A stretch of DNA of 53,426 bases from a virus (Duplodnaviria > Heunggongvirae > Uroviricota > Caudoviricetes). Positions 5,105 through 51,352 of this stretch are shown here, one piece after another. The position numbers and the translations under genes are program-made. How positions within the stretch are numbered: the first letter of the stretch is position 1; each line of letters starts with the position of its first letter. Under the pieces are notes generated by a model, which made no database searches, was not told the origin of the DNA, and was given only the letters and a program-made list of their open reading frames with translations. Location of the stretch: the IMG/VR virus record IMGVR_UViG_2541047798_000005, one strand, 5' to 3'.

Positions 5105-5122
5105 TATGTCATTACCTCCGGT

Positions 5123-6241
5123 TTACAAAATGGAATATTCAGGGTAATAAACAAAGCGCCCGATCTCACCATAATCCTGGCTGTAAATAATCACCGCTGC
5201 CATACGACGTGACCGCCAGCCGCCATTAGTTGAGTAAGCGTCTTTACCCGCTAACGTGCCGTGATACTCAACAACGCCTAACGATGATTCAATTAGCCGT
5301 TGATGATGCCAGTGCCCGCAATGAGCGTAAACCGCCGCAGACTTGCCAAAGTCTTCTCGCCAGTCAGAGACGCAGGCAGACAACAAATTTTCAGGTTTTT
5401 TGATAGTATGACCGTGATGATATGCAAGGAATGTTTTGCCGTACTGTGTGTGGTGGACGATAGCAGGGGACACATCAACAGTTACGCGCGGTTCATCTTC
5501 GTAAAAAGCCGCCAGCGCCGCACGTAGCCAAATCATGCCAGACTGATCGTGATTGCCTGATAGTACCTGGATTTCAATATCCTTATGATTTAACAACATC
5601 TTTCCTACCGCCCGACGTACCGCTCGGATCGCTACATAGACAAGTTTTGCATAGCGTGAATCGCAATCCAGTACGTGATTGCTTGATGGCGTAACTGGCA
5701 ACAGCCCGTCAGTGTGAAGAACATCCCCACCGAGAAGCAAAACAGCTTTTTCAGACATCGGCGCAGCGCCCACCGCGTAGTCAAAGAATTCATTCAACAC
5801 GCGTTCAGCGATCCCAGTGTCGTAGCTCTCGCCGCATTCAGCTTTATGAGCAAGCGCCCCGATATGCAGATCAAATACCGGATAAAGGGCCAGGCTTTTT
5901 TGAAAATCAATTTCAGGCACTGGCACGGCCTCCGCGCGTGGTATTTCTTCCGTGAATGCGTCGCGGGCAGCTTCCATTAGCCTTTCCATTTCATCACGGT
6001 CACGGGCAGTTTTAATCCAGCGCATGACCGTATTACCAGCCTTATCGACAAGAACAGATTCACCAGTAACGCCAAAACCAGGCGCGCGACGCGTTGATAT
6101 TAAACCGCGTTTCGCCAGTTTTGCGCCTAGCCGCTCGACGTTGCGTTTTGACATGCCATATTTTTCAGCGATCTGCTTGTACGTTAAACCGTTGTTATAT
6201 TCAGCGATCAATTGCTCATCGCTGATTTTTCTTTGCGACAT
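5123..6241 (-). CDS. N-terminal HTH domain fused to calcineurin-like metallophosphoesterase
   Basis: 372 aa; N-terminal HTH (LTYKQIAEKYGMSKRNVERL); phosphoesterase motifs DLHIG, GGDVLHTD, GNHD, HHGH, GHWHH. Confidence 0.6.
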   Translation of the reverse strand: MSQRKISDEQLIAEYNNGLTYKQIAEKYGMSKRNVERLGAKLAKRGLISTRRAPGFGVTGESVLVDKAGNTVMRWIKTARDRDEMERLMEAARDAFTEEIPRAEAVPVPEIDFQKSLALYPVFDLHIGALAHKAECGESYDTGIAERVLNEFFDYAVGAAPMSEKAVLLLGGDVLHTDGLLPVTPSSNHVLDCDSRYAKLVYVAIRAVRRAVGKMLLNHKDIEIQVLSGNHDQSGMIWLRAALAAFYEDEPRVTVDVSPAIVHHTQYGKTFLAYHHGHTIKKPENLLSACVSDWREDFGKSAAVYAHCGHWHHQRLIESSLGVVEYHGTLAGKDAYSTNGGWRSRRMAAVIIYSQDYGEIGRFVYYPEYSIL

Positions 6242-6274
6242 AATGTTATTTCCTCATGTTTACATTTTGTATAT

Positions 6275-6997
6275 TTATTGACAGCAAACAATCTCTTTAT
6301 ATGTTTCTTCTACCATGTCGAATACTTCCGGCCTGTAATAAAAAAATTCAGTGCTACCATCAAACTTAACAGGGAAGTTTATTTTATAGTCACTGAAAGC
6401 ATCGTGCATTTTGCTTTCTATTTCCTGCATAATCTCAGTAGGCCCATTCCATGTTTTAACTACCTGTAAATCAGTCAGCCTTACACCTGCCTTACGAGCA
6501 CTTTTAAATACTCTGTTCCTCCTTTCGTTCTCTTTTACGCTTACACCAATTTTCATTTGTGTAGGCACTTCAAGATCATCAACCATGATGTAAAGTTTTC
6601 CGTTGTAGTGTGATAAAAACCCGTATTTAGCGCATTTCGGGCAACCGCGCCCGCTCTTAATGTCTCTAGGTTTAGCCGACCACTCATGATCACAAACCTT
6701 GCAGCGGCATAATACTTTTATTTTGTCGCCGGTAATTTCCCCAAGCACTTCAATATCAGGATTAACCTTAGCAATAGCCGATATTTGTTCTTCATGCGAT
6801 AACTTCATATTCCCAGCGCATTTCTGGCAACCACGTCCATATTTAATATTGCTAGGTGTAGCCGACCATTCATGGTTACAAACTTTGCAGCGACATAATA
6901 CTTTTGTACTGTTATTAACAATTTCCCCTAACACTTCAACATCAGGATTAACTTTCGCGATAGCTGCAACTTGTTCTTCATGTGTTAACTTGCGCAT
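6275..6997 (-). CDS. Duplicated zinc-ribbon domains fused to a T5orf172-like (GIY-YIG-related) domain
   Basis: 240 aa; two 63-aa repeats each with CRCKVC...GRGC.KC; C-terminal GKLYIMV...KIGVS...IESKMHDAF...GSTEFF pattern. Confidence 0.55.
   Translation of the reverse strand: MRKLTHEEQVAAIAKVNPDVEVLGEIVNNSTKVLCRCKVCNHEWSATPSNIKYGRGCQKCAGNMKLSHEEQISAIAKVNPDIEVLGEITGDKIKVLCRCKVCDHEWSAKPRDIKSGRGCPKCAKYGFLSHYNGKLYIMVDDLEVPTQMKIGVSVKENERRNRVFKSARKAGVRLTDLQVVKTWNGPTEIMQEIESKMHDAFSDYKINFPVKFDGSTEFFYYRPEVFDMVEETYKEIVCCQ
6629..6985 (-). repeat. Intragenic tandem duplication (about 189-bp unit, two copies) encoding the two zinc-ribbon repeats
   Basis: Protein repeats are near-identical; the DNA copies are clearly related (e.g. 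around 6735 versus 6921). Confidence 0.6.
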
Positions 6998-7136
6998 CGC
7001 TCCAACTCCTTAAGAACATCATGCGCGCTACAACGCAAAAACCCACCGCGACACCCGTTTGCACAGGTTGCAGTGTCTTATTGCGTCAGAGACGCCATCA
7101 GGTGGCTAATTTTCGATTTACAGAATGGTAGGTAGG

Positions 7137-7238
7137 TTATGGATTGATTAGCAGGTACAGACCGCCGAACAAGGCGACGTTAACAGCGATTGCCGCAGCG
7201 ATGGCAAAAGCCAGGGCGAAAACGTGTTTACCGTCCAT
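7137..7238 (-). CDS. Small hydrophobic peptide (33 aa)
   Basis: ATG with GAGAGG RBS; MDGKHVFALAFAIAAAIAVNVALFGGLYLLINP. Confidence 0.35.
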   Translation of the reverse strand: MDGKHVFALAFAIAAAIAVNVALFGGLYLLINP

Positions 7239-7371
7239 TTTAAAATCCTCTCTGTAACGCTCTATAACGAGCTAATCGCAAAAAGGTAAGCAAGTGTAGC
7301 ACCACATGCGATTTAGCTCGCTGGTGAGGTTGTTTTGTGGGTAATTTTGGATTTTTGCGGATCGTGATTGG

Positions 7372-8424
7372 TCAAAGAACGCCAGCGCGCGTATCACGTA
7401 GCGTTTTTGGTTTAAGCAGGAAATCAAGTGTCGCGGTGAAGCCATCGCCGAAGTAAAAATCTGAAGCCGTGTTTTTGAACGTTTCGAAGTAGGCGACAAA
7501 GCCGTTAATGCTTTTGTCTTTCAGGTAGTCAGTGAACGCATAGATCTTGCGTTCAAGATCCCGATCCAGTTCGGCAGGTGGTAACAGGCCGTCAAACGTG
7601 CTGTTAAATGCTTCCACCACGTCGGCAGCGTTTACAGTGGCTGACAGTTTGCGCCATTGTTCAGCATCAGTCAGATACCCATCAAATTTAGTTACCCGGC
7701 AAATGTTGATAGGCTTAGGTACTCCACCACGGCTACGCCATTGGGTTAAAGCCCACTCAATTACTAACGTGATCTCATTCTCCGTATACGCTTTACGTGT
7801 TTTTGTTTCTGTCAGTAGTTCTACGAATGGCTTAGCATCACGACATTTGCATCCTGCCTTGTCGTTGTAGAAGGCAAGGCAACGCAATGCCGCTTCGTTT
7901 ACGCCATCCTGATTGACCATTTTTTGTTCATTTTCGACAATACACGAAGTGTATATATCTTTTTCTCTTTCTTTTTCTACTTCTAATTCTAATTCATGAC
8001 CCTTTCCTGACCCGGTCATGACCCTATCATGACCTTTTTGTGTTGGATTGATTAACTTTTCTAATTTTAATTGCTCCTTCGCTGTGTTTATGGCGGCCCT
8101 GTAAGCGCTTTTAGAAGTCATTGATTGGTCCAGCCTTTTCAATAACTTTAAACAAGTTATGTGGCCTTGAGAACATTCAAACAAACCAATTTCGATGAAG
8201 TATTTCATCATTTCTTCTATACGTTTTTCAGTAGATCCGACGTTTCGCGCAATTATTCTTGCGTCATGTCGTAGGTCAAAAGTTAGATTGTGCTGATCTA
8301 CGTCATAAGTTATTAGTTCTAGGCAATACCAATAAAGCCCGTACCCTTCCAGGCCATAATCTAACAAAACGTTTTGAAGTTTTTCATCGCGGTTCGCATC
8401 GCTGTCATGCTTAAACCACTTCAT
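7372..8424 (-). CDS. Replication initiation protein with phage replisome-organizer-type N-terminal domain
   Basis: 350 aa; N-terminus MKWFKHDSDANRDEKLQNVLLDYGLEGYGLYWYCLELI typical of replisome-organizer / DUF4373-type N-domains; sits where lambda O would be. Confidence 0.65.
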   Translation of the reverse strand: MKWFKHDSDANRDEKLQNVLLDYGLEGYGLYWYCLELITYDVDQHNLTFDLRHDARIIARNVGSTEKRIEEMMKYFIEIGLFECSQGHITCLKLLKRLDQSMTSKSAYRAAINTAKEQLKLEKLINPTQKGHDRVMTGSGKGHELELEVEKEREKDIYTSCIVENEQKMVNQDGVNEAALRCLAFYNDKAGCKCRDAKPFVELLTETKTRKAYTENEITLVIEWALTQWRSRGGVPKPINICRVTKFDGYLTDAEQWRKLSATVNAADVVEAFNSTFDGLLPPAELDRDLERKIYAFTDYLKDKSINGFVAYFETFKNTASDFYFGDGFTATLDFLLKPKTLRDTRAGVL

Positions 8425-8427
8425 AGA

Positions 8428-8685
8428 TCATCCCTCCGGCAACATCACTACATAGACATCACTGAATGCATCAAGACGACAAACAAATCCTTTATCCATT
8501 AACGCGGCGAAGGCATCATGTACCGTATGAACAGGAAGTTCACACATTGCGGCTACTTCTTTGCGTGATGCATCATGTACCCGTCCTTTGTTATCTGCCT
8601 TTTCAGCCAGAGCCATTAAGACAAGTTTTTGAATCGGGCTATTAAGTTTTACGTTCCATGCTTTACTAATCATGTTCATACTCAT
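8428..8685 (-). CDS. Cro/CII-like small HTH regulator, first gene of the minus-strand early operon
   Basis: 85 aa from ATG at 8685 with AGGAG RBS; predicted HTH; divergent from cI-like gene. Confidence 0.55.
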   Translation of the reverse strand: MSMNMISKAWNVKLNSPIQKLVLMALAEKADNKGRVHDASRKEVAAMCELPVHTVHDAFAALMDKGFVCRLDAFSDVYVVMLPEG

Positions 8686-8794
8686 CGCATTTTCTCCTAT
8701 GGTTAGAGTGAACGCGCGGGCGGGCATCCCATTAGCATTAGATAGCAGTGACTGACCGCTCAACAGATCCCGCCGTTGCGTGATATTTGTTTTT

Positions 8795-8827
8795 CGCTTC
8801 GCAGCGACACCGGATTTTTAAAGAGCA
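8795..8827 (-). promoter_or_regulatory. nut-like site (boxA-like TGCTCTTTAAAAA plus hairpin CGCUGCGAAGCG) in leader of the minus-strand operon
   Basis: Minus-strand reading gives a close match to rrn/lambda boxA followed 8 nt later by a short GNRA-type hairpin. Confidence 0.4.
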
Positions 8828-8990
8828 TAAGGTAAGTGCCTTTTTGTGCCTTCAGTTATCTTTTTCCTTGCGTCTTTGCAAGTATGGCCTTACCTTGTCT
8901 GCAAGTTTACAAAATGGAATTTTAAGATCAAGGCTTAAAATACACGTTTTGTGACTTGCATCAAACTTTTTGAGGTTATAGGGTAGCGAC

Positions 8991-9638
8991 ATGAAAACAA
9001 AATGGTATGACTTAGCAAAGCAGCTCATGCGGGCGCAGGGCATGAGCCAGGATTCACTCGCGGATCGTATGGGGATAACTAAAGGCGGCCTGTCACACTG
9101 GCTGAACGGTCGCCGAGAGCCAAATCTTGAAGATATTGCGCGGATTATGCGCGAGCTTGGTCGTCGGCAGTTTACTGTTACACATGATGGCATGGTCATT
9201 GATGATTCTGTTTCTAATACACTTCAGGCCGTGCCGCCGCGTGATTTAGGTAGTTACCCGGTTATTGACTGGAAGGACACAGTAAACAATATGGATGACG
9301 CAAGGCGTTCAGCATTACGACACGTTACGACTAGCGTTATTTGTTCAGATGACAGTTACTGGCTGGTTGCCAAAGGTGAATCAATGAACGCGCCGCAGGG
9401 GTTGAGCATCCCGGCGGGGACGATGATACTTGTGGACCCGCACGCGCCAGCTATTGACGGCAAACTGGTTATAGCCCAGCTTGAGGAAGGGCAGATACCG
9501 ACGTTTAAACAGTTGATTATTGATGGAGGTCAAAGGCTTTTACGTTCGCTCAATCCGCTGTATCCGCCAATCCCTATGAATCCAGAATCAAAAATTATAG
9601 GCGTGGTGGTTGATGCGAAGATCGTAAACCTGCCATAA
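8991..9638 (+). CDS. cI: cI-like repressor (N-terminal HTH, C-terminal S24 LexA-like peptidase domain)
   Basis: 215 aa; HTH (GMSQDSLADRMGITKGGLSHWLNGRR); S24 motifs GESM and K-containing C-terminus; no RBS before ATG, consistent with a leaderless pRM-type transcript. Confidence 0.85.
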   Translation: MKTKWYDLAKQLMRAQGMSQDSLADRMGITKGGLSHWLNGRREPNLEDIARIMRELGRRQFTVTHDGMVIDDSVSNTLQAVPPRDLGSYPVIDWKDTVNNMDDARRSALRHVTTSVICSDDSYWLVAKGESMNAPQGLSIPAGTMILVDPHAPAIDGKLVIAQLEEGQIPTFKQLIIDGGQRLLRSLNPLYPPIPMNPESKIIGVVVDAKIVNLP

Positions 9639-9644
9639 ACATTA

Positions 9645-9668
9645 GCCGCCGAATGGCGGCTTTTCTTT
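9645..9668 (+). terminator. Rho-independent terminator downstream of cI
   Basis: GCCGCC-gaat-GGCGGC hairpin followed by TTTTCTTT. Confidence 0.7.
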
Positions 9669-9761
9669 GCCTGGAAAACACCAAAACGTAAACAGAAAAC
9701 GTTATTTATTATTTAAATATCAATGGCATATAAAATATTTTAAAAAAGTATACAAAATGGA

Positions 9762-9790
9762 TTGACTCGATGTTTTACGGGGCGTATATT
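9762..9790 (+). promoter_or_regulatory. pL-like sigma70 promoter (TTGACT-17-TATATT)
   Basis: Near-consensus -35/-10 with 17-bp spacer, immediately preceded by the TACAAAATGG motif; about 350-nt leader before the N-like gene. Confidence 0.6.
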
Positions 9791-10044
9791 GCGAGTCAAA
9801 GGAAGGGCGCAGGTAACAAAAGCAACTTCCTGGCACTTTAAAAATCAGGCTTAACACCTTGTCAACCGTGGAGTAACTCCCCGATGGGGGACCGAAAGCG
9901 GCACTGATAACAAGGCGCATGGGGTGTTTAAAGCGTTACATCCCCCACGAAACCGCACGCAAGGCGACGAGTCAGCTTGCTTGGAGTGAGCAAGGTCACG
10001 CCGGGAACGGCGATGATTGCGGGATTAGTTGAAAGATGTTAAGC

Positions 10045-10082
10045 CGCTCATTAACAATCTGGTCAGCCGCTGGAAGTGCGGC
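10045..10082 (+). promoter_or_regulatory. nutL-like site: boxA-like CGCTCATTAACAA plus boxB-like hairpin GCCGC-UGGAAGU-GCGGC
   Basis: boxA has one mismatch to rrn boxA GCTCTTTAACAA; hairpin 8 nt downstream; lies between pL-like promoter and N-like gene. Confidence 0.55.
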
Positions 10083-10138
10083 AATTAACGAAGATGATTT
10101 TTTATTAAGTATCATCAAGGATATACGGAGATCAGATT

Positions 10139-10429
10139 ATGAGCGTTACAATTATATATGGTAAATGTGATAGCAAAATGAATGCCAGGGAACGCAGAAG
10201 GATAAAAAGAGAAAACGAAAGAAAATCATCACCTGCAATCAATAAAACAGACAATGTGGATAAAGCTATTCGATTTGCAAACGAGGAAAGATGCAAACCA
10301 AATAGCATTAAAGAACGTCGCAAAGGATCAGTAAAATGGTATACGGAAAATGAAAGCGGCAGCTACTACCACGCAACGCAACCACGCCATTTAGGGGAAA
10401 AACCCCTGGATAAAGTCCGCTACCATTAA
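10139..10429 (+). CDS. N-like transcription antitermination protein (arginine-rich motif)
   Basis: 96 aa; arginine-rich motif NARERRRIKRENERK near N-terminus, as in lambda/P22 N; first gene after pL/nutL-like elements. Confidence 0.55.
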   Translation: MSVTIIYGKCDSKMNARERRRIKRENERKSSPAINKTDNVDKAIRFANEERCKPNSIKERRKGSVKWYTENESGSYYHATQPRHLGEKPLDKVRYH

Positions 10430-10575
10430 TACAAAATGTAAACATCCGGAGATGACATTATGGTTATTCAGGCGCTTCAATTCAAACTGGCAGTAGCGGA
10501 AATGCTTCACGATGCCGAAATGTGGAGCGCCGCGAATAAAGCCTTATACATAGTGTTAACAGCACGGGAGATTAA

Positions 10576-11220
10576 ATGGTGAAAACAGAGTTACATAAAA
10601 AGCTATGGACGATTCAGCAAACGCTGAACGCGCCGAAAAATCAGCGTAATAATTTTGGTGGATATAATTACAGGTCGGCGGAGGATATTTTAGAGGCGGT
10701 TAAACCACTGCTTCAAAGTATTACGCTGACTGTAAGCGATGAAATTGTCCTGATCGGCAATCGCTATTATGTGAAAGCTACGGCGACGCTAAGCGACGGT
10801 GAAGACGAAATAGCGGTAACGGCTTACGCCAGGGAAGAAGAAAGCAAGAAGGGAATGGACGCAAGCCAGCTAACAGGTGCGACATCAAGTTACGCGCGAA
10901 AATATGCTTTGAACGGTTTATTCTGCATTGATGATGCGCGAGATCCTGATACTGACGCATACGCTAAGCAGACAGGCCAGCAGCCTCGCCAGCAGAAAAA
11001 CCCACCAAAACAACAACCACAGCAGCAGAAAGCGCCGCCAAATCCTGATGAAGTATTAGCACGTTTCTGTGATGCAGCAGCGAAAGCGCAGGACGCTAAC
11101 AAGCTGCGTGAAATATTTGGCAAATGCTGGAAATTACTACCGGAAGGATCGGAACATCGAATCAAGGCAAAAGATGTTTATGACATCCGGGTAGCAGAGC
11201 TTAACGGGGAGATGGGTTAA
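10576..11220 (+). CDS. erf: ERF-family single-strand annealing recombinase
   Basis: 214 aa; NFGGYNYRSAEDILEAVKPLL... typical ERF N-domain; Q/P-rich linker. Confidence 0.8.
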   Translation: MVKTELHKKLWTIQQTLNAPKNQRNNFGGYNYRSAEDILEAVKPLLQSITLTVSDEIVLIGNRYYVKATATLSDGEDEIAVTAYAREEESKKGMDASQLTGATSSYARKYALNGLFCIDDARDPDTDAYAKQTGQQPRQQKNPPKQQPQQQKAPPNPDEVLARFCDAAAKAQDANKLREIFGKCWKLLPEGSEHRIKAKDVYDIRVAELNGEMG

Positions 11221-12157: not shown

Positions 12158-12273
12158 GCATGGTAAAAATTGCGGCATTAGCCGCCGCCTTCGTTATTGG
12201 GGTGATTTATATCACAGCTTCTTTTTATGTCGCCGTTTTTATTGCTGAATTAATTGTTGCATTGTTGGGGTGA
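12154..12273 (+). CDS. Small hydrophobic membrane peptide (39 aa)
   Basis: ATGA overlap with upstream stop; MSMVKIAALAAAFVIGVIYITASFYVAVFIAELIVALLG. Confidence 0.4.
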   Translation: MSMVKIAALAAAFVIGVIYITASFYVAVFIAELIVALLG

Positions 12274-13804: not shown

Positions 13805-13902
13805 CAGCGTGATTGCGATCACATAAATATACATTTTGTATTGCGATCGCATATCCGTTTTGTAAACTGAAATTAAGAGGTTTACGGCACGGAGGAAACA
13901 AG

Positions 13903-15945: not shown

Positions 15946-16429
15946 CAGGTTATTAGCCTGCGTTTATGTCGCCGTTTTCGTTATCATCAATCTTATTGTT
16001 AACCACTGTGGCCCGTGGGTAATTCCGATCACCACGGTAGCCGCCGTGTGTGTCAATATGATGATTCGTGATTTTCTGTTATATGACGGCGGCCTTAAAT
16101 GGTCGGCTACAACATGCGCCGCCGCTGGCGCAATCACGGTGCTGATAAATTACGACGCCGGAATGGTGGCGATCGCGTCATTCGTCGCGGTTGTTTCCGG
16201 TGCGCTTATTTCTGGCGGCGTTTACCGGGTTTTACCTGGTGATTTCGATTCTAAACGCTGGCCTGCAAATATAGCGTCCGCCATTGGCGATGCGTTAATT
16301 TTCCCAACGCTATCGTTTATGGCATTCATGCCGGAAATATCAGCTATGCAATTCATCTCAAAAATGGCGGCGGTAACGGTGATCACTATCATCATGCGCC
16401 GCTACTTTACGTTCGAGGGTAGGAAATGA
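15926..16429 (+). CDS. Integral membrane protein, function unknown
   Basis: 167 aa, 4-5 predicted TM helices; GGAGG RBS. Confidence 0.5.
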   Translation: MKMVAIDRLLACVYVAVFVIINLIVNHCGPWVIPITTVAAVCVNMMIRDFLLYDGGLKWSATTCAAAGAITVLINYDAGMVAIASFVAVVSGALISGGVYRVLPGDFDSKRWPANIASAIGDALIFPTLSFMAFMPEISAMQFISKMAAVTVITIIMRRYFTFEGRK

Positions 16430-17190
16430 GTGGGCTTAGAAATTGGGTGGTGTGGTCGCTGTACGACGGCAGCGGATACGCCGTTAAAGATTGGGCCGAC
16501 GCTGGTTATAAATGCTATTGCTTCAACTATGATGGCGCTAATCACGGCGATTATGAAGGCGTCAAAATCATTCATCCGAACATTGAGTATATCAACGTAT
16601 GGATTGACAGCCATTTCCTGGTAATGTTCTCCCCTGAATTGTCTGTTTATCCAGATCCTGACATTATCCTGGGCTTTCCTCCGTGCGACGATCTTGCGGT
16701 GTCCGGCGCTCGCTGGTTTGCTGATAAGCGGAAAAAAGATCCTTACTTCCAGCAGAAGGCGGCATACAACGCAAAACTGGTAGAAACGCTTGCTGATATG
16801 TACCACGTCCCGTGGATGGTGGAAAATCCGGTAGGTGCGCTGTCAACGTTATGGCGCAAACCTGATTTTATCTTCAACCCGTGCGCTTACGGTGGCTACC
16901 TGCCTGAAGACGACAAACACCCTGCTTTCCCTGAATACATAGCTGCCCGCGACGCATACACGAAGAAAACTTGTATCTGGTGCGGGAATGGATTTAAGCA
17001 GCCGCTATTCCGGCCTGTACCTATGCCGGATGAATGGGAAGACAGCAAACAGCACGCGAAGTTAGGAGGAAAGTCGAAACGCACTAAGATGATCCGCTCA
17101 CTAACGCCGCGCGGCTTTGCCCGTGCTGTATTCCTGGCTAACGACCGGGCCATCACTCGTACTACGCTTAACCGCATTTTACCGGACTAA
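16426..17190 (+). CDS. DNA C5-cytosine methyltransferase-like protein with non-canonical PCD motif
   Basis: 254 aa; motif I-like SLYDGSG, motif IV-like GFPPCDDLAVSG (PCD instead of PCQ), motif VI-like MVENPVGAL; too short for a full target-recognition domain. Confidence 0.5.
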   Translation: MSGLRNWVVWSLYDGSGYAVKDWADAGYKCYCFNYDGANHGDYEGVKIIHPNIEYINVWIDSHFLVMFSPELSVYPDPDIILGFPPCDDLAVSGARWFADKRKKDPYFQQKAAYNAKLVETLADMYHVPWMVENPVGALSTLWRKPDFIFNPCAYGGYLPEDDKHPAFPEYIAARDAYTKKTCIWCGNGFKQPLFRPVPMPDEWEDSKQHAKLGGKSKRTKMIRSLTPRGFARAVFLANDRAITRTTLNRILPD

Positions 17191-17348
17191 AGTTTACAAA
17201 ATGGCATCATTGCGTGATGCGGATCACATAATGGCGCTTTTGCCTTGTTTGGTGGTATCCATTTTGTATACTTCAAGCAAACAAAATGCTCTTTAAAAAT
17301 CCGGCAGCGCTGAAATGCGTAGAAATCACCTGAAAAGGAGAGAGCATT

Positions 17349-18549: not shown

Positions 18550-18728
18550 AAAACGAAATTAAAGATCTGCAAATAGATGTTCAACGTGACGAGCATGATT
18601 TAGCGACAGTCAGACGAATCCAGGCTTTTCACATGCAGGAATTACTTGCGCTGAAAGAGCTTGAAAGAAAACTGGTGCAAACCATTTCTGATCGCAAACG
18701 CCTTATTGCTCGCTATGGGGGCAAATAA
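18546..18728 (+). CDS. Hypothetical protein
   Basis: 60 aa ORF, translationally coupled. Confidence 0.4.
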   Translation: MKNEIKDLQIDVQRDEHDLATVRRIQAFHMQELLALKELERKLVQTISDRKRLIARYGGK

Positions 18729-19456
18729 TGAATTTAGAATCCATTCTGAAATTCCACTTTCCCAAATCACCGCGATTATCAGACGAAAGCCGGGGAACAT
18801 CCCCGGATGCACTTAATACGACGGATGCGCTTACCGCCGCTGGTATGGCGCAATCGCGCGTAGAGCTTGGCTATAGTGCTTTTTTAGGGAAAATGGAGCT
18901 ATCGCAAGCTGAAAAACACAGGGCCGTAATTTTGCTTACAGAGCGTTTAAGGGTTATGGCGAAAGATTACGAATACGTGATGGAATTAAATGAAGAACAA
19001 CGCAATGATCTTATTATTCTTGTTGCCGTTTTCGCGTTTCGGGATTACTGCCAAAGTGCGGCTACCGAAAAGGTTTGCCCTAAGTGCGGAGGTAACGGGC
19101 TTTTACCGAATCCATATTGTGAATACACATCGACAGTTTGCTCGCGGTGCAACGGCAAAGGCTACGTTAAAAACCATTGCCAGAGGTGCAAGGGGCGTGG
19201 CGAAGTACCGGATAAAGCAGCCAGCGAAGCGGCGGAAATGCCAGTATTCAAAACGTGCCAGCACTGCGGCGGGCGCGGGTACTCGCGTTTCCCTGTAGAT
19301 CTCGTCCGGCAGGCCGTTAACCAGCTTGTTTTCCCGGTAAGCAGATCAACATGGTGGAAGAAATACCGGGTTTTCTATGAAGACGCCATAGCGGAGCTAT
19401 TCAAAGAAGAGGCCCGCGCGGAAAGCGAAATTAAACGAGTGACACGGGGTGAATAA
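18728..19456 (+). CDS. Q: Late-gene antiterminator Q (lambda type)
   Basis: 242 aa; N-terminus MNLESILKFHFPKSPRLSDESRG...AAGMAQS closely parallels lambda Q MRLESVAKFHSPKSPMMSD...; Cys clusters (zinc finger). Confidence 0.85.
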   Translation: MNLESILKFHFPKSPRLSDESRGTSPDALNTTDALTAAGMAQSRVELGYSAFLGKMELSQAEKHRAVILLTERLRVMAKDYEYVMELNEEQRNDLIILVAVFAFRDYCQSAATEKVCPKCGGNGLLPNPYCEYTSTVCSRCNGKGYVKNHCQRCKGRGEVPDKAASEAAEMPVFKTCQHCGGRGYSRFPVDLVRQAVNQLVFPVSRSTWWKKYRVFYEDAIAELFKEEARAESEIKRVTRGE

Positions 19457-20964: not shown

Positions 20965-20968
20965 CAAT

Positions 20969-21555: not shown

Positions 21556-21565
21556 CGGGGTAAAT

Positions 21566-22074: not shown

Positions 22075-22076
22075 AG

Positions 22077-22304: not shown

Positions 22305-22308
22305 CATC

Positions 22309-22771: not shown

Positions 22772-22773
22772 TT

Positions 22774-37476: not shown

Positions 37477-38175
37477 ATGATCCATGTTCGTACAGGACAA
37501 TTTGCTGCCGTGGTGAACGGTAAGCGCTATGAGTTTAATCCTTGCTTTGCTGCGATGGCTAAAATCGGCAACGATAGTGAGCTTGTCGAATATTTCGCAC
37601 TTATCCACGGCGGCAAATATCCATCACGATTGCCAGCAGATCCAGACCTACGCAATCGCATTCTGGCGCGGTGTTATGGTGAAATAGTTAAGACATCAAT
37701 GCACATCCTGAAATGTTGCTCAGACGACGAAATAGGCCCGTTATTGGGCGAATGCTGGTTTACTCCTTCGGGTAAGTTAAAGTTAAAGCCCGGATTAATG
37801 CCGATCGAGGATATCATCACGCTTGCGCAGCACTGCATGTACCACGGTCTTATTGGTGATGGCCCGGAAGAAGAGTCCGGGGAAATCCCGGAAGGGGAAT
37901 ATAAGCCGACTTTTAACGTCCTTGAATTCGTCTATTCTGCCGTTGCTCACCTGGGCTTGTCAGAATCGGAAGCATGGAATATGACAATGACCGGATATAG
38001 GGCCGCTGTACGCGCTAAAACGCCGCCAGACGAAAGAAACGAGAAAAGCAAGCCAAACATTCACATAAATAAACGTGCTTATGACGAGCAAATGGAGGCC
38101 GCTAAAAAGGCACTAGAAAGAATGAAAAATCGTGAGCAAGAAAAGCCCGGTAGATCCGGGCGTTTTGCTAATTGA
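37477..38175 (+). CDS. Tail assembly chaperone (putative)
   Basis: 232 aa from ATG at 37477; located between major tail and tape measure genes. Confidence 0.4.
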   Translation: MIHVRTGQFAAVVNGKRYEFNPCFAAMAKIGNDSELVEYFALIHGGKYPSRLPADPDLRNRILARCYGEIVKTSMHILKCCSDDEIGPLLGECWFTPSGKLKLKPGLMPIEDIITLAQHCMYHGLIGDGPEEESGEIPEGEYKPTFNVLEFVYSAVAHLGLSESEAWNMTMTGYRAAVRAKTPPDERNEKSKPNIHINKRAYDEQMEAAKKALERMKNREQEKPGRSGRFAN

Positions 38176-38542
38176 AATCTTTAATTGCTGTACCTGGTGA
38201 ACTGTGTGTGATTGTATTGTATACAGACTTTGCCTTACTGCGATCTTTCCATTCTTTTAGGATGCAGTTATCAAACTTTGCGATAACCCTTGAAGGGGAT
38301 AATTCTTCAACATCCATGTAAGTAAATCCTATCGTGCTGGTTACTGAATACCATACGTGATAACTATAATTACCGTCATGCTCGATTCTTTGTGGTTCCC
38401 CCATTATTTTATTCACTTGCTCACAAGTCATTCCAACTTGCAAATTTTTATCAGCTAACTTAACGAAATCAGTTGATCTTGCGCACCCTGTAAGAGCTAA
38501 AGCCATAACACCAATGAGAACCGCTTTGATTATTTTTTTCAT
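38168..38542 (-). CDS. Lipoprotein (moron)
   Basis: 124 aa; signal peptide with lipobox LTGC; AAGGGG RBS; opposite strand to tail operon. Confidence 0.65.
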   Translation of the reverse strand: MKKIIKAVLIGVMALALTGCARSTDFVKLADKNLQVGMTCEQVNKIMGEPQRIEHDGNYSYHVWYSVTSTIGFTYMDVEELSPSRVIAKFDNCILKEWKDRSKAKSVYNTITHSSPGTAIKDFN

Positions 38543-38552
38543 GATTTACCCC

Positions 38553-39212
38553 TTAATTCCAGTTGCAAGCGTTTTTCACTTTGTCGATGTGGTTATAAAG
38601 ACCATCAATGTTAAACACTGCTTTCTCAATGTCGCCAGCTTCCGGCACTACTTCAATGATGAATTGTTTTTCGTTAACCAGTTTTTTAATCATTGGGATG
38701 GCTTTTTTGCCGTCCCATAATCCAAGAGCTTTATAATTAGTTGACCGCCACCACTCAGTAGCTACAGCTTTGTGAACGCCGATCCGGTAGTTAATATAAG
38801 TAGTGTCCCCGGCGTCAGTTACATGGTGTGACCATGCTACGAACATTTTTGTTTTATTACCCTGGCAAGCGATTGTTAATACCGGTTTATTCTTATCCTG
38901 TGCCTTCAGTGTCGGGAAAGCATCAAGACTTCCGCTGAATTGTTCTGCTTTCACAAAAAGGAATACGTTTTTTGCGTCCTGCATATCATCTTTTCTTTCA
39001 ACTACAAGCCACTGTTTACCAGCATTTTCTTTTTCTAACTGTGCATCGTATGCGGCTTGTTTTGCTTGTTGTTCTGCAAGCCATTTAGCATTTTTCTCTG
39101 CTAATGCTTGTTGCTCTTGATTGGTCACTATAGGCGCTTTTTCATTATCCTCATTGCAACCAACCAGACCCAATACCGCCGCAATCATTGCCACTTTTGC
39201 TAACCGTTTCAT
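38553..39212 (-). CDS. Lipoprotein (moron)
   Basis: 219 aa; signal peptide with lipobox LVGC; opposite strand to tail operon. Confidence 0.65.
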   Translation of the reverse strand: MKRLAKVAMIAAVLGLVGCNEDNEKAPIVTNQEQQALAEKNAKWLAEQQAKQAAYDAQLEKENAGKQWLVVERKDDMQDAKNVFLFVKAEQFSGSLDAFPTLKAQDKNKPVLTIACQGNKTKMFVAWSHHVTDAGDTTYINYRIGVHKAVATEWWRSTNYKALGLWDGKKAIPMIKKLVNEKQFIIEVVPEAGDIEKAVFNIDGLYNHIDKVKNACNWN

Positions 39213-39258
39213 AACCCACCACGCTAACTTGATTTACTGACCATTCCCTTTAGCTTCC

Positions 39259-39300
39259 TTATACAAAATGGAGTCGTTGAAGTAAAGCCATTTTGTATAA
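39259..39300. promoter_or_regulatory. Perfect 13-bp inverted repeat TTATACAAAATGG-N16-CCATTTTGTATAA; candidate divergent promoter/operator
   Basis: Each arm ends in a TATAA(A/G) -10-like hexamer facing outward toward the tape measure gene (+) and the lipoprotein genes (-). Confidence 0.5.
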
Positions 39301-41686: not shown

Positions 41687-41716
41687 AACCCCGGTGCAAT
41701 GCCGGGGTTATTTTTC
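41687..41716 (+). terminator. Rho-independent terminator after tape measure gene
   Basis: CCCCGG-tgcaatg-CCGGGG hairpin plus T-run; near-identical to the terminator at 35100. Confidence 0.75.
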
Positions 41717-41768
41717 GTATTTATAAACGACCATTCCGCGCGATATATCCCCTTTCGAATATCTCGAC

Positions 41769-42023
41769 TCACTTATGAGTGCCTTTCACGCCACATAACT
41801 TGTTATAGGCATGGTGCTCAACAATTAACCAAACCTTCAAATCTTCGCTAAACAGCCTCCAATCAAGATTGATATCCATTTTGTATCCGTAACCGTCGCG
41901 TAACTTTTTGGGGTAAACTTCTTTTCTCAGAAAGGCTTTAAGTAATTCCTTACCTTTCTTGATGATCCGGTCCTGTGCGTTTTTCTGTGCTTTCAGATTT
42001 CTGTCAATCGCTACCAGTTTCAT
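41769..42023 (-). CDS. Small basic protein, candidate toxin-like component of a two-gene cassette
   Basis: 84 aa; 17 nt downstream of a 51-aa ORF on the same strand; family not confidently assigned. Confidence 0.35.
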   Translation of the reverse strand: MKLVAIDRNLKAQKNAQDRIIKKGKELLKAFLRKEVYPKKLRDGYGYKMDINLDWRLFSEDLKVWLIVEHHAYNKLCGVKGTHK

Positions 42024-42040
42024 AACTCACCCCATCATCC

Positions 42041-42196
42041 TTAGTTAAGTGCCTTCAGGAAGAAGTCCCGGTATTCATCTTCTTTCGCATTCATCATGAA
42101 TTGACCGTATTTGAATGCGTCGTCGAAACCCTTAACGATTGCTATTTCCACTTGTTCGAATGCGTTATTTAGCATTACTACTACATAGCGTTTCAT
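42041..42196 (-). CDS. Small protein (51 aa), candidate antitoxin-like partner
   Basis: Not in ORF track; ATG with GGAGG RBS; candidate promoter TTCACA-17-TATATA upstream on minus strand. Confidence 0.35.
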   Translation of the reverse strand: MKRYVVVMLNNAFEQVEIAIVKGFDDAFKYGQFMMNAKEDEYRDFFLKALN

Positions 42197-42236: not shown

Positions 42237-42304
42237 TATATACATCTTGTTGCGTGCTATGTGAAGCCATTTTGTAAACTAGCTATAATCATTGTGACAA
42301 TGAT
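42237..42304. promoter_or_regulatory. Control region: minus-strand promoter (TTCACA-17-TATATA), CCATTTTGTAAAC motif, TATAAT box and perfect palindrome ATCATTGTgACAATGAT (42288-42304)
   Basis: Direct reading; palindrome has 8-bp arms around a single central base. Confidence 0.45.
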
Positions 42305-42363
42305 CTTATTTTTCGCGTAGAAGCGCGTAAAGATATATACAAAATGTAACTTGTGGGGGTTTT

Positions 42364-42918: not shown

Positions 42919-42947
42919 GACCCCGCGCGAAGCGGGGTTATTTTTAT
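42919..42947 (+). terminator. Rho-independent terminator
   Basis: CCCCGC-gcgaa-GCGGGG hairpin followed by TTATTTTTA. Confidence 0.7.
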
Positions 42948-43070: not shown

Positions 43071-43319
43071 CTATAAGTTATCACGCAGATAATTAACGCC
43101 CTTATCAGTGACGAATGAATGGTTAACCTGGTTTTCATCCGTCATGATGATGAATAACTTTTCATGTAGGTATTTCGCTTTCGGGTACAGCGTTAAACAG
43201 ACCTGGTACAGTATCCCGCGCTCAATCAGCAAATCAATAAATTCGTGTTCATGATAACCGATGAGGCGGGCGGCCTGTTTCAACGTGTACACATAATCAC
43301 CGTGATTGCGCCGCCCCAT
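43071..43319 (-). CDS. Hypothetical protein (moron cassette gene 3)
   Basis: 82 aa; opposite strand to tail operon. Confidence 0.45.
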   Translation of the reverse strand: MGRRNHGDYVYTLKQAARLIGYHEHEFIDLLIERGILYQVCLTLYPKAKYLHEKLFIIMTDENQVNHSFVTDKGVNYLRDNL

Positions 43320-43328
43320 GTTGCCGCC

Positions 43329-43676
43329 TTATTTATCGAATGCTGAAAGGTTATCGATACAGAAATCTTTCGCCGCTTTTTCGTATTCGCGTTTTGCTTC
43401 TGGATCGTCAGCCGGGAAACCTTTTGCGTGTATTTCACCAGGGCAAGACTGGTCCATAGAATCTGCATAATAAGCAGTGAAGCTACCATTAATATCTTTC
43501 GGGTTCATATCTTCCACCTCATCAACTATCTGTACCGGATTAGCAGCATATTTCACTGGATGGCCTAAACTACATTCAAGAATCCTGCCTTCTTCCAGGG
43601 CTACTTCTTCGCTATCAAATAATCCGAAACACTCCTTGCTACCACTTAACCACACATCAAGACTGTATTTTTTCAT
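43329..43676 (-). CDS. Hypothetical protein (moron cassette gene 2)
   Basis: 115 aa from ATG at 43676 with GAGG RBS. Confidence 0.45.
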   Translation of the reverse strand: MKKYSLDVWLSGSKECFGLFDSEEVALEEGRILECSLGHPVKYAANPVQIVDEVEDMNPKDINGSFTAYYADSMDQSCPGEIHAKGFPADDPEAKREYEKAAKDFCIDNLSAFDK

Positions 43677-43845
43677 TTTTGTTAGCCTCATATTTGACAG
43701 GTTCGATCTGGTATCCCAAAAGGCGGTCATCCTCAGCAAGTAAAAGCGCGTCAACCAATGCTTCACCCTCGTCGTCATACAGGGCGATAACCTTTTCCCT
43801 ACCGTCTGTCATGAATACCGTCAACTTCCATAGCTTTTCAGTCAT
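43657..43845 (-). CDS. Hypothetical small acidic protein (moron cassette gene 1)
   Basis: 62 aa from ATG at 43845 with GGAGG RBS; overlaps gene 2 start by 20 nt. Confidence 0.4.
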   Translation of the reverse strand: MTEKLWKLTVFMTDGREKVIALYDDEGEALVDALLLAEDDRLLGYQIEPVKYEANKNEKIQS

Positions 43846-43974
43846 AACGCACCTCCGCGCCATTTTGTTAACTATGCTTCCGTTTGAGTAAAATATACAT
43901 ATTGTAAAAACCGCGATCAATCCATTTTGGTATGATTTAGCGTGACGCAGATCACAGAATGACAAGGTGAGAAA

Positions 43975-44679: not shown

Positions 44680-44681
44680 TT

Positions 44682-50870: not shown

Positions 50871-50898
50871 AAAACGGGGCATAAGCCCCGTTTTTTTT
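50870..50898. terminator. Bidirectional rho-independent terminator between J and the convergent minus-strand gene
   Basis: ACGGGGC-ataa-GCCCCGT hairpin flanked by A-run and T-run. Confidence 0.8.
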
Positions 50899-50909
50899 AT
50901 GCATTGTTT

Positions 50910-51155
50910 TTATTTTTTACACCCATCATTTACACCAGAAAAATGGATAGGTAAATTACATTCACTGTCAATAATTTTACCTTGTAGTTGTTTTTCTTTC
51001 CATGAGTCAGTATTGAAATAACTCGAACGTTGGTTATCAAGGCCAGTATCACCATATTGAGCAGTGCCAGCATCACTCTTATCTGTCGAATTTACAGAAG
51101 CAAAAGCACCAAAAGACAGAGCTGATAAGATGCAAGCAACAATTAGTTTTTTCAT
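50910..51155 (-). CDS. Small secreted protein (moron)
   Basis: 81 aa from ATG at 51155; Sec signal peptide MKKLIVACILSALSFGAFA; two Cys near C-terminus. Confidence 0.5.
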   Translation of the reverse strand: MKKLIVACILSALSFGAFASVNSTDKSDAGTAQYGDTGLDNQRSSYFNTDSWKEKQLQGKIIDSECNLPIHFSGVNDGCKK

Positions 51156-51352
51156 TGTATTCACCTTACTGTTTGTTTTACTGTCATTTGTTGTTCGTGA
51201 TGATCCACCCATCCGATGAGCAAATCACCGCAGAAGCTATCATTTCGTATGTTGATATAGATCAAAAAATACATTATGTATAAGCCCAAAGTGTAACACA
51301 GATCACAAAATGGTAGAATTGTTTAGTTAATTAACAAAACGGAGTTATTGCG

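Follow-up and report, generated by a model that had tools for sequence, protein, structure and literature searches.

Candidate operators of a lambda-CI-like repressor dispersed across the genome of an E. coli prophage

Why does one short sequence recur in the gaps between genes throughout a prophage genome? This question was raised by a stretch of 53,426 nts (IMG/VR record IMGVR_UViG_2541047798_000005; hereafter the window), which is an E. coli prophage of the mEp021/mEpimmI group and is 85-89% identical to phages mEp010, mEp044, and mEp021 over most of its length. A first-pass annotation had reported a recurrent intergenic motif and had proposed exhaustive scans of the window against shuffled controls and of related prophages, and the motif proved to be real in both. 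A total of 11 matches to TTTACAAAATGG with at most one mismatch were identified on both strands of the whole window, compared with 0.71 expected from 100 dinucleotide-preserving shuffles (maximum 3; 0 of 100 reaching 11). Using an 18-column weight matrix trained on 15 copies, we found 24 sites scoring ≥12, whereas 30 mononucleotide shuffles yielded a mean of 2.1 and a maximum of 6. The 11-mer core T[AT]TACAAAATG occurs at 26 sites with at most one mismatch, and 17 of these are located in non-coding DNA, which constitutes only 8.0% of the window according to a hand-curated gene list (binomial P = 4e-13); one further site, at 5122, coincides in part with a stop codon. Phage mEp010 and more than 40 related IMG/VR contigs keep the sites at orthologous positions.

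The coordinates reported at first were correct to within a few bases. Several were shifted (8905 to 8906, 10430 to 10428, 17269 to 17259, 23031/23054 to 23028/23056, 42346 to 42336, and 43859/43921 to 43860/43920), and the rest stand. The copy near 51303, described as exact or one-mismatch, is present at 51302 but has two mismatches. Of the three inverted pairs listed, the one at 39259-39271/39288-39300 does have perfect 13-bp arms. The arms at 17193/17259 differ at one of 15 bp, and those at 23028/23056 match imperfectly. Five additional copies were detected, at 7117, 8941-8955, 9774-9788, 43894-43908, and 51268-51282.

The repeated unit had been taken to be a 12-mer, but this is only the first 12 bases of a 15-bp pseudo-palindrome, TWTAC-AAAAT-G(T/G)AWA. 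One half-site follows the consensus TWTAC; the other follows the consensus GTAWA in approximately six sites and is a non-consensus GGAWW or GGCWT in most. When the sites were scored as dyads (arms TWTAC/GTAWA), six reached 9-10 of 10, and most others combined one consensus arm with one GG-type arm, which, read as TATCC, matches the consensus arm at four of five positions at best. Full palindromes are present at 6259, 10428, 13828, 43894, and 51268, and the site at 42336 is nearly one. Many sites form pairs 24-25 bp apart, center to center (9749/9774, 13828/13852, 23028/23053, and 39260/39285), and the cooperative spacing of lambda operators is close to this value. On the opposite strand, the unit reads CCATTTTG-TAWAC(T), and, in agreement with the earlier suggestion that its 3' half can serve as a -10 element, the outer half-site and the next base form a -10 hexamer, TAAACT or TATACT. 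Thus, many copies are plausible repressible promoters, in which a single 15-bp cassette could be both promoter core and repressor site. Most copies have one consensus half-site only, yet the AAAAT center and the GG are strongly conserved, unlike the operators of related repressors, in which the center varies. Such conservation would be unusual for a site bound by a symmetric dimer and could mean that the sequence has a second reader or was copied recently.

The predicted binder is encoded beside the sites, as is the case for lambda-type CI operators. The gene at 8991-9638 (plus strand) encodes a cI-like immunity repressor, the orthologue of Rep021, with the Pfam domains HTH_3 and Peptidase_S24, and the closest solved structure to its product is the lambda repressor (3bdn, E = 1.4e-20). 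Rep021 has been experimentally shown to confer immunity to all mEpimmI phages, in a paper that does not report operators, promoters, or a repeated intergenic motif (PMC11893012). Also as in lambda-type systems, several copies in the gaps to either side of cI lie across the -10 or -35 of early promoters. O_R1 (TTTAC-AAAAT-GGAAT, 8906-8920, plus) lies over the spacer and -10 of the leftward early promoter (TTGATC 8931-8926, 16 nt, TAAACT 8909-8904), with the nutL boxA downstream at 8827-8815; its architecture matches that of the cro-ward promoters in two related lineages (L094 and L170). A degenerate inverted repeat, O_R2 (GTCAC-AAAAC-GTGTA, 8941-8955, minus), abuts the -35 of the candidate PRM (TTGCAT 8956-8961, TATAGG 8977-8982, then 8 nt to the cI ATG). 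Its center is at approximately -42 of this cI promoter, which is probably leaderless, and the equivalent at the same place in a more distant syntenic genome (L165) is CCATTTTGTGAC. Beyond cI, O_L2 (TATAC-AAAAT-GGATT, 9749-9763, plus) covers the first two bases of the -35 of pR1 (TTGACT 9762-9767, 17 nt, TATATT 9785-9790; 10/12 consensus), and O_L1 (TTTAC-GGGGC-GTATA, 9774-9788, plus; 10/10 arms, GC-rich center) spans its spacer and -10. The two are 25 bp apart, center to center, the same spacing as downstream of cI in L169 and L170. Although this region had been described as cI-cro, an HTH_3 cro gene was not found next to cI in this phage; the first leftward ORF (8428-8763) encodes a winged-helix protein, which PHROGs classes as O-N-terminal-like and RefSeq as "MarR family". 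In a search for heteroimmune relatives with this backbone in E. coli, all 35 genomes having the region carried the same repressor.

Homologous repressors are accompanied by homologous operators, as for lambda-type CI, in five independent prophage lineages containing a cI homologue. Each has three motif copies in the ~100-bp gap upstream of cI, and this gap is bounded by a cro-like HTH gene in four of the five; the L169 contig ends at this point, so its cro-like gene is not visible. The copies have the form AAGTATACA-N4-GT in L094/L096, ATAC-N5-GTAT in L169 and L170, GTAC-N5-GTAC in L171, and AATAC-N5-GTA in L168 (middle copy, AATACAAAATGGAAC). Judged from their sequence, the ATAC-N5-GTAT-type gap sites of these relatives are classic operators. 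L169 and L170 also have a pair of full ATAC-N5-GTAT copies, spaced by 25 bp, downstream of cI and before the next genes; in L170, this pair directly precedes the N gene. The copy nearest cro in L094 and L170 provides the -10 (TATACT) of the cro-ward promoter. The reverse complement of TATACATTTTGTATA of the relatives is TATACAAAATGTATA, and the 12-mer of the window corresponds to its first 12 bases with G replacing T at position 12. The window repressor, P0008, and L094 share the N-terminal arm MKTKW without change, and the recognition helix is conserved or similar; L171 differs both in its recognition helix (TPGGMGHW) and in its operator arms (GTAC). The additional distant repressor lineages came from a large protein database, and an alignment-based search of IMG/VR for more distant repressors found no new lineages.

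The motif network is retained in genomes L165-L167, which are syntenic with the window at 35-72% protein identity (only 15% of L165 can be aligned as DNA). They have cro in place of the MarR-like and Lin1244 genes of the window, and the recognition helix of their repressor, ITKGGLSHWLNG, is identical to that of the window. Here, ACAAAATGG is the commonest 9-mer, 20 matrix matches occur in 20.6 kb, and the motif is kept at five gaps syntenic with those of the window. All network-carrying genomes share one recognition helix and therefore offer no real co-variation test within this phage backbone.

Confinement to OL/OR, typical of lambda, was not observed: about 20 sites are located outside the immunity region, from 5122 to 51345. 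In the leftward operon, TTTAC-AAAAT-GGAAT (5122-5136, plus) overlaps the stop codon of gene 5123-6241, and a DnaB-type helicase starts 17 nt farther downstream, at 5104; the syntenic site of L165, at 6708, is a full palindrome. A full palindrome with 10/10 arms (TATAC-AAAAT-GTAAA, 6259-6273, minus) separates genes 6275-6997 and 5123-6241, and TTTAC-AGAAT-GGTAG (7117-7131, plus) is found in the gap 6998-7371, 120 nt upstream of gene 6275-6997. The N-like gp17 gene (10139-10429) has at its stop codon the full palindrome AATAC-AAAAT-GTAAA (10428-10442, plus), which is conserved in mEp010 (at 10359) and L165 (at 11276). A tandem pair 24 bp apart, also present in L165, comprises the full palindrome AATAC-AAAAT-GTATA (13828-13842, minus) and TTTAC-AAAAC-GGATA (13852-13866, minus); the latter carries the -10 TAAACT (13863-13868), with TTGCGA at 13841-13846 and a gene start 32 nt downstream, at 13900. 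Left-facing TTTAC-AAAAT-GGCAT (17193-17207, plus), at the end of the methyltransferase-like gene 16426-17190, pairs with TATAC-AAAAT-GGATA (17256-17270, minus) of the candidate promoter pR2 (TTGTTT 17245-17250, 16 nt, TATACT 17267-17272), which is followed by the nutR2 boxA (17287-17299).

In the first gap after the Q gene block, an inverted pair consists of TATAC-GAAAT-GGCAT (23028-23042, plus; at 23130 in mEp010) and ATAAC-AAAAT-GGCAC (23053-23067, minus), the latter reading rightward as CCATTTTGtTATATA, an extended -10 (TGn TATATA). Further pairs and single sites accompany the tail-region morons. The left arm TATAC-AAAAT-GGAGT (39260-39274, plus) faces a minus-strand VasI-like moron (38553-39212) and is nearly invariant in 29 distinct relatives, in which only one position of the 12-mer varies; the morons to its left are of at least four different kinds, the arm bases staying while the moron is replaced. 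The right arm TATAC-AAAAT-GGCTT (39285-39299, minus), in which CATTTTGTATAAAATAG is invariant, faces the tape-measure gene (39340). Right-facing TTTAC-AAAAT-GGCTT (42264-42278, minus) lies 85 nt upstream of the tail gene starting at 42364, and the near-full palindrome TATAC-AAAAT-GTAAC (42336-42350, plus; 9/10 arms), 13 nt before the same ATG, faces a ParE-like toxin moron. Between moron 43329-43778 and tail gene 43975 is TTAAC-AAAAT-GGCGC (43857-43871, minus). The full palindrome TTTAC-AATAT-GTATA (43894-43908, minus; 10/10 arms) covers the -10 of a leftward sigma-70-like promoter (43920-43892; TTGATC, 17 nt, TATATT), and the variant CCATTTTGgTATGAT (43922-43936, plus), an extended -10 followed by GTGACGCAGATCAC, is 38 nt upstream of tail gene 43975. 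The last sites are the full palindrome TATAC-ATAAT-GTATT (51268-51282, minus; 9/10 arms) upstream of moron 50910-51212, ATCAC-AAAAT-GGTAG (51302-51316, plus), and TTAAC-AAAAC-GGAGT (51331-51345, plus), 7 nt before the ATG of gene 51353. The inverted pairs were also considered as terminator hairpins, a candidate rejected because a U-tract is absent after them; "terminator T8" in the GenBank entry of mEp010 coincides with an operator pair and is probably a mis-call.

We consider it likely that the motif is the operator of the lambda-CI-like immunity repressor and that its copies form a dispersed operator-promoter network. Most likely, the motif became fused to a promoter -10 box and was copied to about 24 places in this genome. 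Two of the roles first offered as alternatives, a promoter family and the sites of one regulator acting genome-wide, would then be one and the same thing, with the cI-like repressor as the predicted binder; the back-to-back promoter appearance of inverted pairs would hold for the closely spaced ones, as promoter/operator units. In our judgment, the evidence is evenly balanced on the broader claim that a repressor of this type (HTH + S24) runs a genome-wide regulon of ~24 operator/-10 cassettes, including tail-gene restart and moron promoters, through which the immunity state directly gates accessory genes and late transcription. In this scheme, the cassette would serve the canonical promoters of the immunity region (pR1, with its two sites 25 bp apart, and the leftward early promoter that precedes nutL), with a weak site at about -42 of the cI promoter. 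It would have spread to about 20 more places in both early operons, upstream of nutR2, in the first post-Q gap, and on both sides of the minus-strand morons interrupting the tail genes. In a lysogen, the repressor would sit on all sites, keeping every secondary promoter off and blocking read-through at intra-operon sites, and its loss would derepress all of them together. Moron promoters would be repressed, or activated in some geometries. Morons are usually expressed in lysogens, and lambda biology does not predict repressor control of morons or tail-gene restart promoters, which counts against the network. The morons in the proposed regulon are a ParE-like toxin pair, the VasI-like protein, and an antirepressor fragment.

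It is unlikely, in our view, that the copies are only a family of phage promoters, with CCATTTTG-TAWACT as a shared spacer and -10 for host sigma-70, perhaps with an unknown activator, and the repressor acting only at the immunity region. Of the 15 half-type copies, 11-12 do point, in the CCATTTTG orientation, at a co-directional gene start 17-140 nt away (three are opposite, and the palindromic copies are without orientation), nutL and nutR2 lie just 3' of two copies, the arrangement TTGnnn, 16 nt, TAWACT was found by hand at 8931-8904, 13841-13868, and 17245-17272, and the variants CCATTTTGtTATATA and CCATTTTGgTATGAT are canonical extended -10 boxes. However, a sigma-70 consensus scan (hexamers 16-18 nt apart, at least 9/12) called pR1 (10/12) and 43920-43892 but not the motif cassettes, whose -35 is weak (TTGnnn) or absent. 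The intra-operon full palindromes at 6259 and 10428 leave no space for a Shine-Dalgarno leader, the conserved left-facing copies at 9749, 17193, and 23028 have no gene to drive, and there would be no explanation for why the element is identical to the tripartite operators of homologous repressors. To our knowledge, the eight conserved spacer bases also have no sigma-70 contact. TTTACA as a -35 box was rejected, as most copies lack a -10 at 16-18 nt.

A binder other than the repressor, be it a Cro-like or MarR-like phage protein (ORF 8428-8763) or a host factor, appears quite improbable. Cro and CI share operators in lambdoid phages, the first leftward ORF (8428-8763) is a winged-helix protein, and the asymmetric conservation of the center and GG hints at a non-symmetric reader. 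L165-L167, however, keep the network with no homologues of ORFs 8428-8763 or 7372-8424, and the sole shared DNA-binding regulator of the immunity region is the repressor with its identical helix. The whole motif is not known to fit the consensus of TyrR, CpxR, OmpR, PhoP, IHF, LexA, DnaA, sigma-54, sigma-32, or sigma-S; TATACT, with C at -8, is sigma-S-like, but a G stands at -13.

Recombination joints, i.e., short shared homologies for module or moron exchange between related phages, were the remaining role suggested by the first-pass annotation and are very improbable: in a census of the window against 90 related loci, breakpoint clusters do lie beside copies at 5100, 6250, 7000, and 39200-39250, mEp010 has another gene in place of the one between 5122 and 6262, and the morons that abut the 39260 left arm are of at least four kinds, but the largest clusters (15900, 29850-29900, 41700-41800, 43050, and 38150) are away from copies, most copies have no cluster (none at 8906, 9749, 13852, 17193-17256, 42264-42336, or 43857-43936), mosaic phages generally break at gene boundaries, and 12-15 bp of homology explains neither the dyad structure nor the repressor-operator link. 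A Q-binding element was rejected because the same element sits at early promoters upstream of nut sites, and an RNA-level start-codon element because copies there occur in both orientations and as full DNA palindromes. Rfam and tRNA scans gave no matches, and searching the full text of the literature for CCATTTTGTA or TACAAAATGG brought up nothing but unrelated primers. In IMG/VR, the pattern TACAAAATGG-N10-30-CCATTTTGTA was confined to the same phage group apart from two unrelated chance matches, and a search of GTDB species genomes with the tape-measure protein for relatives gave no matches.

Among known systems, the mEp021/mEpimmI coliphages share with the window the repressor, the N-like gp17, and three nut sites (Negrete-Mendez et al. 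2025). The proposed network resembles the CI/Cro operators of lambda (OR1-3 and OL1-3) in what appear to be 15-bp pseudo-dyads with a consensus and a non-consensus half, in its repressor with an N-terminal HTH and a C-terminal S24 domain, and in sites spaced 24-25 bp over the -10/-35 of divergent early promoters beside cI; the weak site at about -42 of the cI promoter resembles lambda OR2 at PRM. It differs from lambda in having about 20 copies outside the immunity region, including the tail-gene region, mostly one consensus half-site, an invariant center, and no HTH_3 cro. In phage P1, single and inverted double operators both occur. Approximately 22 C1 operators with an asymmetric consensus are dispersed over the genome of this coliphage (PMC8546580). 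As proposed for the ~24 window sites, one repressor gates many scattered promoters there, and the number of dispersed sites, about 20, is similar. The resemblance is functional only: the consensus ATTGCTCTAATAAATTT is unrelated to the window motif, P1 C1 is not an HTH_3/S24 protein, the repressor of the window is of the CI/S24 type, and P1 is a plasmid prophage and a myovirus, unlike the window. Cluster A mycobacteriophages have stoperators (L5 gp71 type), many short asymmetric sites mostly in short intergenic gaps that act as promoter operators and elongation blocks (PMC9283540, PMC6550527). The window differs in both sequence and repressor family: the 13-bp stoperator is unrelated to its motif, and the gp71-type repressor is monomeric, uses two domains, and has no S24 domain; stoperators also belong to an actinobacterial host and follow a stricter orientation rule relative to transcription. 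The first-pass annotation had named no equivalent network in lambdoid phages; equivalents exist outside them, and a dispersed repressor-operator arrangement is documented so far for P1 (PMC8546580) and some mycobacteriophages (PMC9283540, PMC6550527).

This analysis proposes operators for Rep021, which PMC11893012 does not report, in a group of coliphages common in the human gut. The 15-bp cassette, a -10 box and operator in one, would be a natural and very compact repressible promoter part. If the binding is true, a lambda-type repressor is not limited to OL/OR and could police a whole genome, tail promoters and morons included, and the accessory genes of this group may belong with induction or infection and not with the lysogenic state. 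Dispersed operators would then also have a third independent origin, after the networks of P1 and mycobacteriophage L5, and such a third case would allow a comparison of why phages evolve them.

The window is an E. coli prophage, a member of the Nus-dependent coliphages that form the mEp021/mEpimmI group. The part tested (region 7400-11200) is 99.8% identical to the E. coli MS 21-1 chromosome, the immunity region was found in 35 of 5,426 complete E. coli genomes, and identity to mEp010, mEp044, mEp021 and MagusPhagus is 85-89% over most of the window length. In this group, the lambda-CI-like repressor Rep021 confers immunity against every mEp021/mEpimmI member, and the N-like protein gp17 acts at nutL, nutR1 and nutR2 (PMC11893012). 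No operators, promoters or repeated intergenic motif were reported in that paper; the 2023 gp17 paper might mention promoters. Three boxA-like elements in the window, at 8815-8827 (minus strand), 9833-9845 and 17287-17299, agree with the three published mEp021 nut sites; nutL and nutR2 share TGCTCTTTAAAAA, and nutR1 has GCACTTTAAAAAT.

The integrase gene (1-1215) and the leftward early operon (minus strand, ~8763 to 1385; replication genes, a DnaB-type helicase and NinB) are followed by the rightward cI gene (8991-9638) with its bidirectional intrinsic-terminator-like hairpin (9644-9661), the rightward early operon beginning at pR1 (plus strand), Q (18728-19456), lysis genes near 25000, and then head and tail genes. 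Four minus-strand morons (accessory genes inserted among the tail genes) lie at 38168-39212, 41769-42196, 43071-43778 and 50910-51212. Their contents include a VasI (type VI secretion) domain protein (38553-39212), a ParE-like toxin with a small upstream ORF (41769-42196) and an 82-aa KilAC/ANT antirepressor-domain fragment (43071-43319), all on the minus strand. The downstream ends of the first three morons carry similar bidirectional hairpins (38145-38161, 41687-41709 and 42919-42939), so late transcription must either be Q-antiterminated or restart at motif copies acting as promoter cassettes.

The first-pass annotation had described a recurrent intergenic motif across the prophage, and both its enrichment and its intergenic bias were confirmed. 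With up to one mismatch, TTTACAAAATGG had 11 matches on both strands of the 53,426-bp window, compared with a mean of 0.71 and a maximum of 3 in 100 dinucleotide-preserving shuffles. A weight matrix derived from 15 motif copies gave 24 sites at or above the cut-off score of 12, versus 2.1 in shuffles. Allowing one mismatch, the 11-mer core T[AT]TACAAAATG was found at 26 sites, 17 of which fall within the 8% of the window that is non-coding according to a hand-curated gene list (P = 4e-13); one further core site overlaps a stop codon. Intergenic copies are absent between 23067 and 39260, which leaves the packaging and head block without sites. The previously noted positions were all correct to within a few bases, including the perfect 13-bp inverted arms at 39259-39271 and 39288-39300.

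When read on the opposite strand, the 15-bp motif (TWTAC-AAAAT-G(T/G)AWA) becomes CCATTTTG-TAWAC(T), in which a -10-like hexamer comes after eight conserved bases. Promoter-like arrangements with 16-nt spacers were found at 8904-8931 (TTGATC/TAAACT, leftward, upstream of the nutL boxA), 17245-17272 (TTGTTT/TATACT, rightward, 14 nt before the nutR2 boxA) and 13841-13868 (TTGCGA/TAAACT), and two variants with one extra base, CCATTTTGtTATATA at 23056 and CCATTTTGgTATGAT at 43922, are textbook extended -10 boxes. Read this way, the 15 half-type copies (one consensus arm and a GG second arm) include 11-12 that face a co-directional gene start 17-140 nt away. That the copies are promoters and nothing else is nevertheless unlikely. 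Three conserved copies (9749, 17193 and 23028) face no gene, and the copies at 6262 and 10428 lie so near a start codon that a transcript begun there would have no leader with a Shine-Dalgarno sequence; some copies thus remain unaccounted for if all are taken as promoters only. It also fails on the full palindromes at 6259, 10428, 13828, 43894 and 51268 (42336 is nearly full), whose structure explains the apparent wrong orientation of these copies. The other sites combine the consensus arm TWTAC and the centre AAAAT with a GG-type second arm, which is at best TATCC (4/5). Finally, promoter function alone fails on the homology of the motif to repressor operators.

Distant repressor homologues were collected from IMG/VR (L094-L096, 38% identity) and a large protein database, and their loci were then fetched. 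In each of five lineages, three copies of one short dyad occupy the ~100-bp gap upstream of the cI homologue, and a cro-like HTH gene lies on the other side in four of them, the Enterobacter locus (L169) being cut at the contig end. The three copies are AGTATACATTTCGTAT, ATATACATTTTGTGT and TTATACGGATTGTAT in a Tatumella prophage (L170); GTATACGTTTCGTAT, ATATACATTTTGTGT and AATACAGTTCGTAT in the Enterobacter prophage; AATACATAACGTACT, AATACAAAATGGAAC and AATACGGATTGTAAT in a Citrobacter prophage (L168); TGTACATTATGTATA, TGTACATTATGTTTA and TGTACATATCGTACA in a Shewanella prophage (L171); and three AAGTATACA-N4-GT in the IMG/VR contig L094. In L169 and L170, the interval from cI to the next genes holds a further two full copies spaced 25 bp apart, which in L170 lie just upstream of N. 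CI-type switches classically have their OR and OL operators arranged in this way, with a three-copy gap and a downstream pair. TATACATTTTGTATA reads TATACAAAATGTATA on the opposite strand, and the first twelve bases of the latter are the window's 12-mer, except for G instead of T at position 12. L168 itself has a GG-type copy among its three canonical operators. In L094 and L170, the copy nearest cro supplies the -10 box (TATACT) of the cro-ward promoter, and the window is built likewise. The window carries, at its immunity promoters and in ~20 further intergenic places, a 15-bp pseudo-dyad that includes a -10-like hexamer and shares homology with the operators used by related repressors. Judging from these sequence comparisons, we consider it likely that the motif is the operator of the lambda-CI-like repressor of the prophage, forming a dispersed operator/promoter network.

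The repressor itself also points in this direction. Among solved structures, lambda CI is the nearest to it. L094 and the related protein P0008 share its N-terminal arm MKTKW without change; P0008 also has the same recognition helix, and the helices of the other homologues are similar to it. L171 combines the most divergent helix with divergent operator arms. Three related loci, L165-L167, are syntenic with the window, with 35-72% protein identity and only 15% alignable DNA. Their repressor is 55% identical overall, with an identical helix (ITKGGLSHWLNG); ACAAAATGG is their commonest 9-mer, and 20 matrix matches occur in 20.6 kb. These loci keep motif copies in five gaps syntenic with the window, the positions being ahead of the helicase gene, in the cro/cI gap, at pR1, at the stop of the N-like gene, before the homologue of gene 13900 (a tandem pair) and at the pR2 equivalent. 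Binding of the sites by another protein appears improbable, somewhat more so than promoter function alone. L165-L167 carry a 75-aa HTH_3 cro, and no homologues of the first two leftward genes of the window (the MarR/O-N-terminal-like ORF 8428-8763 and the Lin1244-type gene) were found in them, which weakens the case for another binding protein. The DNA-binding surface of the repressor is thus the one regulator held constant along with the network. This is the strongest argument for the repressor, and it is one of co-conservation, not co-variation: no phage of the same backbone with an altered repressor helix was found.

Around cI, pR1 (TTGACT, 17 nt, TATATT) matches the consensus at 10 of 12 positions. 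A palindrome with perfect arms (TTTAC-GGGGC-GTATA, 9774-9788) covers its spacer and -10 box, and the motif at 9749-9763 overlies the edge of its -35 box; the centres of these two sites are 25 bp apart, matching the spacing in L169 and L170. On the other side, the copy at 8906-8920 overlies the -10 box of the leftward early promoter. No family-like element other than this GG-type copy overlies the core of that promoter, so GG-type copies must be competent operators if the promoter is repressed at all. A degenerate copy (8941-8955) adjoins TTGCAT (8956-8961), and TATAGG (8977-8982) stops 8 nt short of the cI ATG, a layout shared with L165. Lambda OR2 lies near -42 relative to PRM, and the centring of the weak operator 8941-8955 near -42 of the cI promoter suggests an OR2-like position. 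A usable Shine-Dalgarno sequence is absent from 8956-8993, and a -10 box adjoining the ATG is also present in L094 and L168, which suggests a leaderless cI transcript. No HTH_3 cro adjoins cI in the window; the first leftward ORF (8428-8763, minus strand; 'MarR family' in RefSeq) is similar to the DNA-binding domain at the N terminus of O-type replication initiators. In addition, a candidate ~95-nt RNA (9640-9752, minus strand) from the cI 3' flank, opposite in orientation to cI, could run from the left-facing 9749 cassette (-10 TATACT) to the cI terminator as read on the minus strand (9661-9644); Rfam gave no match for it.

Centre-to-centre distances of 24-25 bp recur in the pairs 9749/9774, 13828/13852, 23028/23053 and 39260/39285. 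Lambda CI-type dimers bind adjacent operators cooperatively, and this spacing would fit cooperative repressor binding. In mEp010, the inverted operator pair (23130/23160) stands where GenBank annotates a 'Rho-independent terminator T8' (23133-23177); the annotation probably mistakes this inverted repeat for a terminator. Upstream of the tape-measure gene, TATACAAAA[T/C]G and CATTTTGTATAAAATAG are unchanged in 29 distinct relatives, among which at least four unrelated morons swap directly to the left of the pair. The earlier suggestion that the copies are recombination joints for moron exchange stood only in part and is very improbable: breakpoints against 90 related loci do cluster beside copies at 5100, 6250, 7000 and 39200-39250, but most copies have no cluster and the largest clusters lie elsewhere. 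The strongest ones, at ~15900 (75 endpoints), 29850-29900 (57 endpoints), 3150 and 3600, are not motif-associated. Shared sequence probably accounts for any role in exchange, as a side effect.

The palindrome GTGAT-N4-ATCAC is a second element present in excess, with four copies against 0.06 expected (13809-13822, 17214-17227, 23010-23023 and 43942-43955), and GTGACGCAGATCAC occurs once more inside an ORF (12202-12215). The element fits the CRP core of E. coli (TGTGA-N6-TCACA), with a perfect match at 23009, and could represent CRP control or a second phage regulator. The four copies adjoin operator sites, their centres lying 46.5-48.5 nt upstream of the -10 boxes of cassettes 13863, 17267 and 23065 and, at the 43922 cassette, over the predicted transcription start; L165 keeps TTTGATTTAAATCACA at its pR2 equivalent. 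Within 18728-23287, the Q antiterminator gene is followed by ~3.5 kb of densely packed small ORFs. The first real gap after Q (22990-23287) combines an extended -10 box with a perfect CRP-like site and an operator pair; it is a candidate for the late promoter region and would then be repressor-controlled.

By mechanism and family, the sites would be lambda-type CI operators. In distribution they resemble the 22 asymmetric C1 operators of P1 (PMC8546580) and the stoperators of cluster A mycobacteriophages (PMC9283540, PMC6550527), although the repressors and sequences of those networks are unrelated to those of the window. This type of network is thus already known; what appears to be new, and is absent from PMC11893012, is a dispersed operator/promoter network under a CI/S24 repressor. 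In the lysogen, the repressor would occupy the dispersed sites and occlude the -10 box of each cassette, and at palindromic sites inside operons it may act as a roadblock. Moron promoters may be either repressed or partly activated, the latter through closely spaced inverted pairs in which each arm lies ~43 bp upstream of the opposite start. Upon loss of the repressor, all cassettes would open together and provide extra transcription entry upstream of nutR2, after the Q block and downstream of the moron-closing terminators.
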